Assembly (NCBI GenBank): GCA_963724495.1 | Contig: CAVRUZ010000002.1 | Location: 463,425-527,424 of the forward strand | Direction of reading: 5' to 3' | DNA length: 64,000 bases | From: an uncultured Actinomycetota bacterium | Lineage (GTDB): Bacteria > Actinomycetota > Actinomycetes > Propionibacteriales > DAIQRJ01 | Shown: positions 7,107 through 59,060 of the stretch, piece by piece | Numbering within the stretch: position 1 is the first letter of the stretch | Layout: every line of letters begins with the position of its first letter | The notes under the pieces: generated by a model | The model's database searches: none | Told to the model about the DNA's origin: nothing | Seen by the model: the letters and a program-made list of their open reading frames with translations, nothing else | Made by a program: the position numbers and the translations under genes

Positions 7107-7620
7107 TCCGGGTCACGACCTTTGCGCCAGGTAGCGCCGCCGCCTGCGTCGCGTTCCATCACCGCCGCGACGTGGCCTGCCCGCGACGCGAAACATGCAG
7201 GAGCAGGCCGCAAAGCGGTCGATGTCGGGCCATATCGGACGCGGTCGGTCCTCGACTGCATGTTTCCCGCGGGTCATCAGGCAAGCCGGCCTCGCCCGGC
7301 GCCGCGTCCGCATGCGGGTCCAGGCCAGGCGCTGCGACCGCAAACATGCAGCAGCAGGCCGCAAGGCGGTCGATGTCGGGCCATATCGGACGCGGGTGGT
7401 CCCGACTGCATGTTTCCCGCGGGGTCATCAGGCCAGCCGGGCTCGCCCGCCGCCGCGTCCCGCATGCGGGTCCAGGCCAGGCCGCGACCGCAAACATGCA
7501 GTAGCAGGCCGCAAAGCAGCCGATGTCGGGCCATATCGGACGCGGGTCGGTCCTCGACTGCATGTCTCCCGCGGTACATCAGGCCAAGCCGGCTCGCCCC
7601 GGCGCCGCCTCCGGACGGTC
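7107..7620. repeat. tandem array, about 3.4 units of 150/151 bp, each unit = ~75-nt palindromic element plus ~76-nt conserved linker
   Basis: AAACATGCAG starts at 7191, 7342 and 7492. Element cores are 7191-7265, 7342-7415 and 7492-7567, with termini AAACATGCAG...CTGCATGTTT. The linkers are also conserved and contain the CCGCATGCGG palindrome. Confidence 0.9.
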
Positions 7621-7771
7621 TGAGCCCGCGGCGCGTGCCGACACCAGCGCCACCGAGCGCCGGCCATAGGCTCAGGTGACCGTTTCTCCAGAACCGCGGA
7701 GCCCGCATGCCCGGCCACACAGACCGCGCCGTGACTGACCAGCGAAGCCGACCCACCACCGGCCGCGGTTG

Positions 7772-8788
7772 ATGGCACCGCTCATCCAGGTCGACAAGCT
7801 CGCCAAGCACTTTCGCCGCCCGCAGCAGTTCGACGGCCCGTTCGGCGGACTTCGCAGCTTCTTCACGCACCGGTACAACACGATCAAGGCCGTCGAGGGT
7901 GTCAGCTTCTCCATCGAGGAGGGCGAGCTCGTCGGATACCTCGGTGCCAACGGCGCCGGCAAGTCGACCTCGATCAAGATGCTGTCCGGAATCCTCACGC
8001 CCACGTCTGGAACGGCCACGGTTGGCGGGCTCGTGCCCTGGCGGCAACGGGAGCACAACGCGCTGCAGATCGGCGTCGTCTTCGGCCAGCGCACCCAGCT
8101 CTGGTGGGACCTGCCGCTCCGCGACTCCCTGAAGCTCATCGGCCGGCTGTACCGGATGGATGAGGAGCGTTACCAGCGCAGCCTCGGGCGAATGACCGAG
8201 CTGCTCGGACTCGAGCCGTTCCTCACCACGCCGGTGCGGCAGCTGAGCCTCGGCCAACGGATGCGAGGCGACCTCGCAGCCGCCATGCTCTACGAGCCGC
8301 GCGTCCTCTATCTCGACGAGCCGACGGTGGGTCTCGACGTGATCGCCAAGGAGCGCACCAGGCAGTTCATCGAGCAGGTCAACGTGGAGACCGCCACCAC
8401 GGTGATCCTGACGAGCCACGATCTCGCCGACGTCGAACGGCTGTGCAAGCGGATCATCTTCATCGACGCCGGCAAGGTGCTCTATGACGGACCCGTCGTC
8501 GACCTCAAGCTTCGCTACGCGCCGACCCGCATCCTCGATGTCACCTTGGCTGAGGACGATCTCCAACCAGGACAGGAAGAGCTGACTGCCGGTGACGTAG
8601 CCGGCGTAGTCGGTGCCACCCGATCACCGGCGAGACTGCAGGTCGAGTTCGACCCAGCCGTCATCCCGGTGCCCGACCTCATGGCCGAGGTCCTGCGGCG
8701 CTACACGGCCTCCGATGTCGCGATCGTCGAGGCGGACCTGGAGTCCGTAGTGCGGCAGATCGTGGAAGAAGGAGGAGTGCGGCAGTGA
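7772..8788 (+). CDS. ABC transporter ATP-binding protein (ABC-2 system)
   Basis: Walker A GANGAGKST, signature LSLGQRMR, Walker B VLYLDEPT. Stop overlaps the next start (GTGA at 8785-8788). Confidence 0.9.
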   Translation: MAPLIQVDKLAKHFRRPQQFDGPFGGLRSFFTHRYNTIKAVEGVSFSIEEGELVGYLGANGAGKSTSIKMLSGILTPTSGTATVGGLVPWRQREHNALQIGVVFGQRTQLWWDLPLRDSLKLIGRLYRMDEERYQRSLGRMTELLGLEPFLTTPVRQLSLGQRMRGDLAAAMLYEPRVLYLDEPTVGLDVIAKERTRQFIEQVNVETATTVILTSHDLADVERLCKRIIFIDAGKVLYDGPVVDLKLRYAPTRILDVTLAEDDLQPGQEELTAGDVAGVVGATRSPARLQVEFDPAVIPVPDLMAEVLRRYTASDVAIVEADLESVVRQIVEEGGVRQ

Positions 8789-18462: not shown

Positions 18463-18537
18463 AAACATGCAAGCGCCACGCGTCCTGCGGGCAACAAAGC
18501 GGGACATGTCCGGACTCGTCCGGCTCGGCTGCATGCC
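18463..18537 (+). repeat. solo copy of the ~75-nt AACATGCA...TGCATG palindromic element
   Basis: AAACATGCAAGCGCC...GGGACATGTCCGGACTCG...GGCTGCATGCC. It starts 62 nt after the uxaA-like stop and lies upstream of the Rieske gene. Confidence 0.8.
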
Positions 18538-26014: not shown

Positions 26015-27208
26015 ATGAAGACCATCGACGACCTGTCCCAGAACCTGGGCGGCCTGTCCGGCAAGCGGATCCTGGTCCGGAGCGATCTCAACGTCCCACT
26101 CGACGAGGGCACGATCACCGACGACGGGCGCATCCGCGCGAGCGTGCCGACGATCACCCGGCTGCTCGACGACGGGGCCGGCGTCATCGTCATGGCCCAC
26201 CTGGGTCGCCCGAAGGGTGCGCCGGAGGACCGCTTCTCCCTTGCTCCGGTGGCGGCCCGACTGGGCGAACTGCTCGAGGGCGTGCCGGTGCGGCTGGCCG
26301 ACGACCTCACCGGGCCGTCTGCCCGCGAGGCGGTCGGGGCCCTGCAGCCCGGGCAGGTCGTCCTGCTGGAGAACGTGCGCTTCGATCCGCGAGAGACCAG
26401 CAAGGACGACGCGGAGCGCGGCGAACTCGCCGACGAGCTGGCCGGCTTCGCCGACGGCTATGTCTCCGACGGATTCGGCGCCGTGCATCGCAAGCATGCG
26501 TCGGTTTTCGACGTGGCCGGTCGGCTCCCGCACGCCGCCGGCCTTCTCGTGGCAGCCGAGATCGAGGTCATGCGCAGCCTCACCGAGGACCCGGCCCACG
26601 AGTACGTGGTGGTGCTCGGCGGAGCCAAGGTGTCCGACAAGCTGGCGGTCATCGACAACCTGCTCGCCGTCGCGGACAGGCTCCTGATCGGTGGCGGGAT
26701 GGTGTTCACCTTCCTCGCCGCACAGGGCCATGACGTCGGGAAGAGCCTGCTGGAGTCGGACCAGATCGACACCGTCAAGGGCTACCTCGACGAGCACGGC
26801 GACAAGATCGGCCTTCCCACCGACATCGTCGTTGCCGGCGCCGTGTCCGCCGACGCCGAGGCTCGCGTGGTGGCAGTCGACGGCATCGGGTCCGACGACC
26901 TCGGGCTGGACATCGGCCCTGAGTCGGCGCGTGCGTTCGCCAAGACCGTGGCCGCGGCGAAGACCGTGTTCTGGAACGGTCCGATGGGGGTCGCCGAGAT
27001 CGACCAGTTCGCCGGCGGAACGCGGGCAGTGGCCGAGGCCCTGACCAAGGTCGACGGTCTGTCGGTGGTGGGCGGCGGCGACTCCGCGGCAGCCGTGCGC
27101 AACCTGGGCTTCGACGAGGGTGCGTTCGGCCACATCTCCACCGGAGGCGGCGCCAGCCTGGAGTACCTGGAAGGCAAGACGCTCCCGGGCATCGCCGCGC
27201 TGGACTAG
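26015..27208 (+). CDS. pgk: phosphoglycerate kinase
   Basis: Starts MKTIDDL...[30 protein letters not shown] and ends ...[27 protein letters not shown]. Confidence 0.95.
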
Positions 27209-27211
27209 TCC

Positions 27212-27805
27212 TCAGCCCTCCGCCTGCGCTGTCGCGGCGTCGGGGTCGGGATCGGCAACGCGGTACTGGCTGCCGTCGGGCGTGCGCACCAGGAAGCCCC
27301 GATCGACAAGGGCACGCCGCAGCCCGGCATAGTCGTCGGTGACCTGCAGCAGGACTCCGTTGACCGCGGGTTCGGCGTAGTCGCGTCCGGCCTCGAACAG
27401 CGGCAGCACGCGCCGGGCGAGTCGGTCGGCCAACTCCGGATCGCTGGGGAGGCCCTGGAGTCGTCCCCACGGCAGGAACGGGCCGAGGTCGTGATCGGCG
27501 ACCTCGGCTCCGACCGGACTCTGGGCCACGAGGGCATCGACGGTCGACCGCACGGCGACCGCGTCGAAGGCGATCCGGTCCGGCGTGGGCGCGGTCAGCA
27601 CGCCGGCGTCCAGCCCTCGCCCGATGGCGTCACCGAAGGACCGCAGTGCCAGCCCCGTCTGCGGACGCAGCTCGTCCAGCAGCGCCGGGGTGCCAGGTCG
27701 GCGGGGGAGGGCGGCCAGAACGGCCGCGACATCCGGGTGGGCCAATGCGGCGAGCATCTGCGCAGAGCGAGCGGCTAGCCGGAAGCGTTCGACGTCGTCG
27801 ACCAT
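27212..27805 (-). CDS. DUF2087 domain-containing protein
   Basis: The C-terminal block [52 protein letters not shown] is typical of DUF2087. ATG 27805 is preceded by GAGGA. It is antisense to the glycolytic operon. Confidence 0.7.
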
Positions 27806-27868
27806 GCGGGGATCCTCGCCGATTCCTGGTCGGTCGAACCAGGGGCTCCGGAGCATCGTGCTGGCGCG

Positions 27869-27942
27869 AAACATGCAGCGGCCCTCGTGGCGGGCCGGAC
27901 AAATGCGCGCATGTCCCGACTCGGGCGTCGCGGCTGCATGTT
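27869..27942 (+). repeat. copy of the ~75-nt palindromic element
   Basis: AAACATGCAGCGGCC...GCGCATGTCCCGACTCGGGCGTCGCGGCTGCATGTT, with 10-bp perfect terminal inverted repeats. It lies between the GNAT stop and the DUF2087 start. Confidence 0.85.
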
Positions 27943-27982
27943 GGGCGTCACGGTCGAAGTCGGCGTGTGCGGACCTGACGCG

Positions 27983-28792
27983 TCACAGCTCCCGCCAGTT
28001 GGCCCGGACGAACTGCACGCGCATGCCCACTCGCTCCATGTTGCGATGGCTGGTGGAGAGGTAGTTGGCGCCGCTGCAGACGAACTCGGCGTCTGCCCGG
28101 CTCGCGTCGGCGATCCGCCGGCGCAGGAGAGCGGACTGGAGGCCGCGACCGCGGAACGCTGGGTCGGTGGCCGCGTCGGCGCAGTAGCCGATGTTGTCGT
28201 GCAGGAAGAGGATTCCTGCCGCGGCCGGGACGCCATCGGCGCGCGCGAGATACAGCCGCCAGCCAGGAAGCCCCAACCACGGGCGCACATTGGCCTTGAA
28301 CCCGTCGCCGTCCGGAATCTCTCGTCCCGCGATGTAGGCGTCGAGGAAGACTTCCATCGCCTCTGCCGTCGTCACCTGCTCCACGGACGTGTCGCCCGCG
28401 TCGGCATCCGCATCGGGTTCGCAGATCAGCGACGCATGGAAGTCCGCCTGGAAGTAGCCGAACCGGGCGAGCTCCCGTCCGAGGGCTTCGTCGTCGATGC
28501 CGGGCACGATCTCGAAGTTCGTCGTGGCTTCGGCTTGTCGGTACCACTCGACCAGGGGTGCGATGTGGCGCTCGAGCCCGGCCCGCAGCCCGGTGACGCC
28601 GTTGAAGTAGGGCAGGTGGCGCGCCATCACCGCCGTGACCCCGTCGTCGAGTTGGCGATAGGCGACGCCGACCGGGTTGCCCGGGATCCGCTCGAGCACC
28701 TGCAGGCGCGAGAGCTTGTAAGCGGTCTCGACAGCGACGGTCCGGCGGACCAGGTCGGCCGACGGTACGAGGTGGGGCATCGGGTCGACCAC
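27983..28792 (-). CDS. GNAT family N-acetyltransferase
   Basis: The C-terminal acetyl-CoA fold contains [17 protein letters not shown]. The GTG 28792 start is chosen by analogy with the identical RBS/start module of the neighbouring gene. The track ORF starts at 28828. Confidence 0.7.
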
Positions 28793-28852
28793 GGGCGGAT
28801 CCTCGCCGATCGCTGTCCGTCCCGCCACGTCTGCGTCGCGGGTTCCCGCGCC

Positions 28853-28926
28853 CTACATGCACCGGACCTCGACCCGCGCCCGACGAATGCGGGTATGTCT
28901 GGATTCGGGCGTTGCGGCTGCATGCG
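28853..28926 (+). repeat. copy of the ~75-nt palindromic element (diverged termini)
   Basis: CTACATGCACCGGACC...GGGTATGTCTGGATTCGGGCGTTGCGGCTGCATGCG. It lies between the divergent GNAT and tpiA starts. Confidence 0.75.
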
Positions 28927-29044
28927 TCGTGTCCGTGGCCGACCGTGCGGGGAGGCGACGGCCGCGGCCATGAACAGCTGGCCGCCGGACCGAGCCGCGC
29001 CACTATCCTGCGGACGACCGCGAGCCCCCAGGCACAGGAGCAGC

Positions 29045-29842
29045 ATGAGCAACCGCACGCCGTTGATGGCCGGCAACTGGAAGATGAACTGCGACCATCG
29101 CGAGGCCGTTCACCTGGTGCAGAAGCTGGCCTGGACGCTGTCGGACAAGAACCACGACTTCGGCGCGGTGGAAGTCGTGGTGCTGCCGCCGTTCACGGCG
29201 ATCCGGTCGGTGCAGACGCTGATCGATGGCGACCGGCTCGAGCTGAGGCACGGGGCGCAGGACCTGTCCCCGCACGACAGCGGCGCGTACACCGGCGACG
29301 TCTCGGGTTCGATGCTCGCCGGACTTGGCTGCGCCTACGTGCTCGTGGGTCACTCCGAGCGGCGCGAGTTCCACGCCGAGGCCGAGACCGAGTGCCAGGC
29401 CAAGGTGCAGGCAGCGTTCCGGCACGGGCTCGTGCCGATCCTGTGTGTCGGGGAGCCGTTGCCGGTGCGGCAGGCGGGGGAGCAGGTGGCACACGCGCTG
29501 GCCCAGCTCGACGGTGCTCTCGCCGGTCTCGACGCCGATCGGGCTGCCGAGATCGTGGTCGCGTACGAGCCGGTGTGGGCGATCGGAACCGGCGAGGTGG
29601 CTACGCCGGCCGACGCGCAGGAGGTCTGCCACGCCATCCGCGGCCGCCTCGGCGAGCTGTACTCCGACGATCTCGCCGATCGGGTCCGCATCCTCTACGG
29701 CGGTTCGGTCAAGGCTGGAAACGTCGCCGGCATCATGGCCGAGGACGACGTCGACGGCTGCCTGGTGGGCGGCGCGAGCCTGGACGCGGACGAGTTCGGT
29801 GGCATCTGCCGCTTCGCCGACATGCCTTTGCTCCCGGCCTGA
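29045..29842 (+). CDS. tpiA: triose-phosphate isomerase
   Basis: Motifs AGNWKMN, VGHSERR and [19 protein letters not shown]. Only the last 265 codons of track ORF 27887..29842. Confidence 0.95.
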
Positions 29843-58984: not shown

Positions 58985-59060
58985 AGACATGCAGCCGCAC
59001 TGTTCGCGCGCCGCGGATAGCCGCACATGTCCGGATCTGCGGCCTTGGCCGTGCATGTTT
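58985..59060 (+). repeat. solo copy of the ~75-nt palindromic element
   Basis: AGACATGCAGCCGC...CCGCACATGTCCGGATCTGCGG...CCGTGCATGTTT. It lies between the MMPL stop (59088) and the ABC ATPase start. Confidence 0.8.

Follow-up and report, generated by a model that had tools for sequence, protein, structure and literature searches.

A probable chimeric 5' end copied from a putative DUF2087 regulator gene onto an acquired GNAT gene within the split gap-pgk-tpiA operon of an uncultured Propionibacteriales lineage

The window analyzed here is a stretch of 64,000 nucleotides (positions 463,425 to 527,424 of contig CAVRUZ010000002.1, assembly GCA_963724495.1) from an uncultured soil Actinomycetota bacterium of the Propionibacteriales, in which two minus-strand genes lie between the glycolytic genes pgk and tpiA. 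The pgk gene (26015-27208, plus strand), identified by translation and homologue search, lies on the upstream side of the split in the gap-pgk-tpiA operon; its product, phosphoglycerate kinase (PGK), gives a 100% match to a 397-aa PGK, followed in the homologue search by Actinopolymorpha PGKs at 75-77% identity and then by those of Kribbella, which places the lineage near Actinopolymorphaceae. The tpiA gene (29045-29842, plus strand) encodes triosephosphate isomerase (TPI), the product starts MSNRTPLM, and the Pfam TIM domain was found in the orthologous loci. After correction of the coding sequences, the first of the two intervening genes occupies 27212-27805, is convergent with pgk and encodes a 197-aa ArsR-like/DUF2087 protein, a BtmL-like putative regulator, whereas the second occupies 27983-28792 and encodes a 269-aa GNAT protein (Acetyltransf_6/Acetyltransf_1). 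Their predicted start codons, ATG at 27803-27805 and GTG at 28790-28792, yield 197-aa and 269-aa products identical to called proteins in public collections. Each start codon is embedded in a 27-nt block (block A, 27797-27823, for the DUF2087 gene; block B, 28784-28810, for the GNAT gene; both read on the minus strand), and further upstream in gene sense each gene is preceded by a copy of a small palindromic element (copy A, 27871-27941; copy B, 28855-28925).

Block A reads ATCGGCGAGGATCC-CCGC-ATG-GTC-GAC and block B, its paralogue, reads ATCGGCGAGGATCC-GCCC-GTG-GTC-GAC, and the two are identical at 24 of 27 nt, as the initial annotation of this DNA had claimed. Each block gives its gene a GAGGA Shine-Dalgarno (SD) sequence, then 7 nt, then an RTG start followed, in the DUF2087 gene, by codons 2 and 3. 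Thus, of the common ribosome-binding site (RBS), start codon and first codons proposed in that annotation, the SD sequence, its spacing, the position of the start and GTC GAC are common to both genes, but the start codon itself differs (ATG versus GTG). The pattern ATCGGCGAGGATCC-N4-RTG-GTCGAC has just these two matches on the minus strand of the 64 kb, even with three mismatches allowed, and none in shuffled sequence. Similarity was then evaluated segment by segment in Smith-Waterman tests whose null consisted of dinucleotide-preserving shuffles (n = 2000). The two blocks score 39, where the null gives 14.1 ± 2.6, and the two palindromic elements score 70, where it gives 15.5 ± 2.5; none of the 2000 shuffles reaches either value. 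Consistent with this, a direct-repeat search recovers a 32-nt segment (27797-27828 versus 28784-28815; 84% identity, spacing 987 nt) and a 77-nt segment (27864-27940 versus 28848-28924; 78% identity, spacing 984 nt), the latter bearing out the paired upstream palindromes described at first. The repeat period, initially given as about 985 bp and equated with one GNAT gene, corresponds to the 810-nt GNAT coding sequence plus a 177-nt intergenic gap.

The repeat is, however, not the continuous stretch of about 180 bp that had been proposed, but two conserved islands in conserved order and spacing. The spacers of about 45 nt that join element to block (spacer or leader A, 27824-27870, minus strand, is non-coding and has no significant similarity to spacer B) score 9 against a null of 11.7, which is chance level. 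The distal flanks 27941-27995 and 28925-28980 show no similarity beyond chance, and the weaker similarity that had been noted there (27943-27975 versus 28927-28955) scores 12 against a null of 15. Past GTCGAC, that is, after codon 3, the DUF2087 and GNAT coding sequences of the window also resemble each other at chance level. The upstream 14 nt of the block are identical between the paralogues although the spacers are randomized, arguing that selection acts on the initiation region. A palindromic operator centered on GGATCC within the block was considered and rejected, being unconserved among orthologues.

Eight related metagenome loci and an outgroup locus, L129, were retrieved by exact protein sequence. 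The DUF2087 proteins of this clade start M-V-D-D-V-E-R-(F/L)-R-L-A-A-R, and more distant homologues, at 45-50% identity, start M-T-P-D-D-V-R-x-L-x-R-A-A; because the distant homologues carry DDVR, the D-D-V-(E)-R string is native to the DUF2087 family. A search with the GNAT protein gave 763 homologues. Those from other taxa at 62-74% identity start M-(0-6 aa)-LxPS, the copied codons not being native to them, and the two GNAT homologue loci examined, L001 and L002, have unrelated gene contexts and no block upstream. Within the clade, the GNAT proteins start MVDDVQRL-IPS (L005, P0003), MVDVVEG-PSQ-LVPS (L131), VVD-PMRH-LIPS (L003), VHD-THHHH-LVPS (L004) and VVD (window). In L005, codons 1-8 of the GNAT and DUF2087 genes match at 21 of 24 nt. 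Since these codons are native to the DUF2087 family and match so closely in L005, the copying appears to have run from the DUF2087 gene to the GNAT gene and to have covered originally some 7-8 codons. In the window lineage, codons 1-3 of the GNAT gene (V-V-D) would derive from the DUF2087 gene, V-D alone being left of the copied codons after the start. The codon for Met5 of the window (28778-28780, ATG CCC CAC CTC) aligns with the start of the L130 gene (ATG ACC CAG CTC) and probably represents the native GNAT start. The junction of copied codons with native GNAT sequence is hypervariable among the relatives, and in L004 (10070-10095) it holds a His run (VHDTHHHHLVPS) between DUF2087-derived codons and native GNAT sequence.

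The gene order of the relatives places the cassette in an evolutionary frame. The outgroup L129, whose PGK is 77% identical, has the order gap-pgk-(66 nt)-tpiA-secG with no insert and no element. L003, L004 and L005 share the order of the window, tpiA-element B-block-GNAT-element A-block-DUF2087-pgk. In L131 the order is tpiA-GNAT-DUF2087-pgk, with no element A and with a premature TAG in the DUF2087 gene, and in L007 it is GNAT-DUF2087-pgk, again with no element A, the 5' end of GNAT and tpiA lying beyond the contig end. Every GNAT or DUF2087 start present on the contigs of L003, L004, L005, L007 and L131 is preceded by the block; block B in particular is conserved 5' of GNAT in L003, L004, L005 and L131 and degenerate in L130. 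In L130, element B and the degenerate block stand directly before ATG ACC CAG CTC (MTQLVPS), the GNAT gene is apparently frameshifted, and only the last 17 codons of the DUF2087 gene are left, the rest being deleted. L132 and L133 have the order tpiA-element B-125 nt-DUF2087-pgk and lack GNAT altogether. The end of the L132 spacer consists of an A-type spacer and block, and its start resembles a degenerate version of the B spacer and block, GTCGAC included, a resemblance equaled in 8 of 1000 shuffles and above all control segments. This points weakly to a secondary deletion of GNAT in L132 and L133, in favor of which we rejected the reading of these loci as the ancestral empty site. The decayed cassettes map to 4780-5909 in L130, 1591-2160 in L131 and 887-1223 in L132, where assembly errors are possible. 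PGK and TPI trees rooted on L129 yield two subclades, (L007,(L130,(window,L004))) and (L005, L132/L133, L131). Element A lies 41 nt past the GNAT stop codon in both major subclades, and in most lineages about 43-48 nt separate the element from the block in either paralogue, the orientation being the same in the two.

We propose that an acquired GNAT gene probably gained a duplicate of the 5' region of the regulator gene by in-frame fusion, the element most probably belonging to the same duplicated segment. In this scenario, the duplication would have occurred in an ancestor of the uncultured Propionibacteriales lineage and would have involved the SD-containing leader block, the start codon and about the first 7-8 codons of the ArsR-like/DUF2087 gene, most probably together with the palindromic element some 45 nt upstream. 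The copy would then have come to lie immediately before the native ATG of the horizontally acquired GNAT gene, fused to it in the same reading frame. The outcome would be a cassette, element-leader-GNAT followed by element-leader-DUF2087, placed antisense between pgk and tpiA and splitting the ancestral gap-pgk-tpiA operon. The original event could have been a tandem duplication followed by replacement, a Campbell-type integration, or a joining at microhomology, for which the R-L codons common to both genes may have served. The copied initiation region (GAGGA, 7 nt, RTG GTC GAC) would enable translation of the foreign open reading frame (ORF), and the equal initiation context of the two genes may allow their coordinated expression. 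Purifying selection would have kept the block of 14 plus 9 nt in the two paralogues while their spacers became randomized. Of the direct repeat-GNAT-direct repeat arrangement that had been attributed to duplication or to capture by recombination between elements, we thus retain the duplication, to which the homology some eight codons deep in relatives (21 of 24 nt in L005) testifies; nothing shows recombination between elements.

Several points weigh against this proposal. Co-duplication of element and block can be read only from their order, spacing and subfamily similarity, since the spacers retain no residual similarity. Element A is missing from L007 and L131, a pattern that the tree explains with equal parsimony by two losses or by two gains. 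No clean pre-GNAT state, with the DUF2087 gene alone, was found among the related loci, and the scans located no transcription start, promoter or terminator of the cassette. Moreover, all four full-length orthologues examined (the window, L003, L004 and L005) have an in-frame RTG 12 codons 5' of the GNAT start (GTG 28826-28828 in the window), which weakens the call of the exact start. Read from GTG 28828, the block would encode I/F-G-E-D-P, and P0002, P0004 and P0121 are called from this upstream position or from even longer starts. The SD spacing favors GTG 28792 as the predicted GNAT start, and a coding leader via GTG 28828 is a minor possibility for this gene. On the DUF2087 side, leader A as coding DNA ("IGEDP", or translation from ATG 27874 in the terminal repeat) was rejected, as L004 has a frameshift, L005 a stop codon and L007 no start codon there.

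The alternative that survives best, which we consider possible yet rather doubtful, is that two separate events were involved: a short duplication of RBS and first codons onto GNAT, and an independent arrival of the elements, either by a transposition resembling that of miniature inverted-repeat transposable elements (MITEs) or by a local hop from B to A. It accounts for the unrelated spacers and for the presence of the block and both genes in L007 and L131 without element A; it also fits a dense family, with seven copies per 64 kb and presence/absence polymorphism, and the equal parsimony of gains and losses of A. However, A and B are mutual closest relatives among the copies of the window (65-72% identity, versus 44-64% to the others), they share orientation and a spacing of about 45 nt to the block in both paralogues, and no target-site duplication marks an independent transposition. 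The identical 41-nt offset of A from the GNAT stop in both subclades argues in addition for one old insertion. The duplication of a single segment holding element and block remains our preferred reading.

A third reading, in which element B, GNAT and element A form a composite transposon-like unit whose two MITE copies mobilized GNAT into the locus, is in our view highly improbable. GNAT is indeed bracketed by two copies of one element subfamily, it has homologues in unrelated contexts in other taxa, and it is missing from L132 and L133. Yet such a unit leaves unexplained why a block with DUF2087-derived codons lies inside it and a twin outside it; no target-site duplication and no second genomic location are known, the L132 deletion keeps B and removes A rather than being a precise excision, and the tract of recombination between the window and L003 ends within GNAT and not at A. 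Least credible of all is the suggestion of the initial annotation that the module linked to the element serves as a portable 5' end (promoter or leader, RBS and start codon) moving with the hairpin to various genes, for although element and block follow each other at similar spacing in both copies at this locus, all five other element copies of the window lack the block within ±200 nt (best matches with 4-6 mismatches in 14 nt, which is background), the block is found just twice in the 64 kb, its codons are native to the DUF2087 family, L007 and L131 keep it without the element, and the element is invariant only in its 7-bp termini.

A search of genome contigs with the DUF2087 protein returned a single match, an unrelated Acidobacteriota sequence. 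A scan of metagenome contigs for GGCGAGGATCCNNNNRTGGTCGA returned at least 120 loci, all within coding regions of unrelated genes, and among the matches listed none was accompanied by DUF2087, GNAT or the element. In the same metagenome scan, GGCGAGGATCC-N4-RTGGTCGA was frequent antisense to conserved high-GC coding regions (L009-L128), where it recurs as ...GTC GGCGAGGATCCG.. GTGGTCGAA GGC...; being common in high-GC coding DNA, the motif is ill suited as a probe for scans of whole collections.

The window and L003 differ by a tract that begins upstream of element B. From 28966 to about 28080, identity between the two falls from 95-100% to about 80% over element B and most of GNAT and then recovers, and synonymous divergence (dS) reaches 0.43 in GNAT but only 0.115 in the DUF2087 gene next to it. 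The jump in divergence, together with the high dS of GNAT, indicates an imported homologous-recombination tract. The elements were rejected as its breakpoints, as the tract starts upstream of B and ends inside GNAT.

The GNAT product matches Pfam Acetyltransf_6 at 27.4 bits (cut-off 22) and Acetyltransf_1 at 22.7 bits (cut-off 20.7). The ratio of nonsynonymous to synonymous divergence (dN/dS) is 0.22-0.31 for GNAT and 0.17-0.34 for the DUF2087 gene, compared with 0.08-0.14 for PGK, and the GC content at third codon positions of both genes is near that of their neighbors. Judged by these comparisons, both genes are under purifying selection. They are dispensable nevertheless, having decayed or been lost in L130, L131 and L132.

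The DUF2087 protein is predicted to combine an N-terminal ArsR-type winged helix with a C-terminal DUF2087 domain. The C-terminal domain is matched in Pfam (PF09860) with an E-value of 1.1e-17 and 64 bits against a cut-off of 22.4, and it is matched in 24 of 25 family members. For the N-terminal part, Pfam helix-turn-helix models gave only marginal matches to the protein family, whereas the family profile matches the ArsR-family protein YgaV (PDB 3cuo) over residues 10-94 with an E-value of 5.3e-5. An AlphaFold2 model of the 197-aa protein has a mean predicted local distance difference test score (pLDDT) of 91 and an N-terminal H-H-H-beta-beta topology. Its closest compact folds in Foldseek are NolR and HlyU, with probabilities of 0.99-1.0 and target template-modeling (TM) scores near 0.6, although the E-values are no better than 0.045-0.085. 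The protein resembles BtmL of the bottromycin cluster of Streptomyces scabies, a cluster-situated modulator of one neighboring gene (PMC7113386). The likeness is one of architecture, with an ArsR-like N-terminus, a DUF2087 domain and a size of about 20 kDa in common (PMC7113386), and the difference from BtmL is the genomic context of the present gene. The portion of the BtmL report examined contains no direct BtmL-DNA binding assay (PMC7113386). By this analogy, the DUF2087 protein is a plausible regulator of its own gene and of GNAT. A more specific version of this idea, which we hold to be improbable, takes the duplicated block of 14 plus 9 nt as more than an RBS, namely as the DNA or mRNA recognition site of the DUF2087 protein. 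Through identical leaders this protein would autoregulate its own gene and co-regulate GNAT, and the cassette, antisense and with no terminator at the convergent pgk/DUF2087 stops, could tune the glycolytic genes by transcriptional interference. If true, the idea would supply DUF2087 proteins with a specific target and a way of acting on it.

The stop codons of pgk and the DUF2087 gene are convergent and 3 nt apart in the window (27206-27214), and the two genes overlap by 4 nt in L004, L005 and L007. No terminator-like hairpin lies between the two convergent stops, so that antisense read-through may be possible both ways. A sigma-70 promoter scan and an intrinsic-terminator scan found no consensus. 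The region upstream of tpiA (28975-29044, plus strand), a presumed new promoter or 5' untranslated region (UTR) of tpiA after the operon split, was examined in an alignment of four orthologues. The roughly 70 nt 5' of tpiA are near-invariant in the clade (L003, L004, L005, L130, L131 and L132), exceeding the conservation of coding sequences, and the window and L003 have zero differences from 29100 down to 28967. These 70 nt bear no relation to the 66 nt that lie between pgk and tpiA in the outgroup L129, which suggests that a new promoter or leader/5' UTR was gained when the operon was split.

The palindromic element belongs to a family that is not confined to the cassette. A hidden Markov model (HMM) built from three copies found seven copies at five loci of the window: copies A and B, three copies in a tandem array (7193-7263, 7344-7413 and 7494-7565), one copy at 18465-18536 flanked by genes for an altronate/galactarate dehydratase and a Rieske protein, and one at 58987-59058 flanked by an MMPL and an ABC-ATPase gene. 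The element comprises 71 nt between the ends of its terminal repeats, is non-coding, and has terminal inverted repeats that extend to about 15 nt; all copies are intergenic. Copy A has ACATGCA...TGCATGT ends, an nhmmer E-value of 1.7e-25 and a predicted fold of -43 kcal/mol, and copy B has an E-value of 4e-24, decayed terminal repeats, a fold z-score of +1.35 and no stable predicted fold. Most copies have strong predicted hairpins (-43 to -52 kcal/mol). ACATGCA occurs seven times in the window against 1.5 expected, each time at an element end. When 15 copies of the window and its relatives are aligned, invariance is confined to the terminal 7 bp (ACATGCA/TGCATGT), the interior varying between subfamilies. 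A covariation test of the stems in these 15 copies found the invariant 7-bp stem only, with zero compensatory changes. None of the seven copies of the window has a target-site duplication; the flanks of all seven extend the palindrome (GCGNNAA / TTNNCGC) and show no direct repeats. The tandem array (7174-7612) consists of 2.9 copies of a 151-nt unit with 88% matches, each unit holding one element copy and an 80-nt linker, and downstream of the array comes a gene for an ABC-transporter ATPase (7769-8788, plus strand).

Among the relatives, element A is present in L003, L004 and L005 and absent from L007 and L131, both of which keep the two flanking genes, with boundaries too unclean to call either a precise insertion or a precise excision. 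Orthologues of element B are found in L003, L004, L005, L130, L131 and L132. The copy at 18465-18536 is kept at the orthologous site in L004 (20314-20390, 85% identity), and therefore some element copies appear to be old and stable. Searches elsewhere yielded no match to the element in a plasmid collection, in 641 kb of unrelated metagenome DNA or in outgroup loci, Rfam gave nothing at gathering score across the window and nothing at E ≤ 5 in 27700-29100, and no description of a matching repeat family was found in the literature. The family is apparently undescribed. Because L007 and L131 lack A, the elements are dispensable for the cassette and would act at most as RNA hairpins or as insulators between transcription units. 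Most likely they behave like REP-like hairpins that affect transcript ends or stability, or that insulate units from one another.

Small palindromic dispersed repeats of bacteria include MITEs such as the Correia elements of Neisseria, the enterobacterial repetitive intergenic consensus sequences or intergenic repeat units (ERIC/IRU), and repetitive extragenic palindromic sequences or bacterial interspersed mosaic elements (REP/BIME). The present element behaves like a MITE/REP-type repeat, the class criteria of neither fully applying. With MITEs it shares a small size (71 nt, less than 300 bp), non-coding sequence, invariant terminal inverted repeats, dispersed copies and insertion polymorphism at orthologous sites, but its copies lack target-site duplications. 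With REP/BIME sequences it shares extragenic imperfect palindromes, a tandem array (151 nt × 2.9) and a strong hairpin, but the GTAG tetranucleotide of REP sequences is absent from the element ends.

Chimeric gene 5' ends that arise by segmental (tandem) duplication, and thereby provide a horizontally acquired ORF with a promoter or RBS, are a general phenomenon. The cassette resembles such cases in that paralogous DNA in direct orientation crosses the start codon, the donor, the DUF2087 gene, is identifiable, and the acquired ORF stands in frame behind a resident initiation region with its native ATG kept internally; it differs in that no intermediate state was recovered here. The case adds one more example of processes already known, namely formation of a chimeric 5' end through segmental duplication, beside MITE/REP-like repeats, and does not overturn current understanding; it is ordinary genome tinkering. 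As such, it would provide a clean, datable example of an acquired ORF made expressible by fusion behind a duplicated resident initiation region, with the highly conserved glycolytic operon gap-pgk-tpiA split in the same process. A further gain is the record of an apparently undescribed MITE/REP-like family from an uncultured relative of Actinopolymorphaceae, and for DUF2087, a domain that is poorly understood, the cassette supplies a candidate pair of regulator and target.

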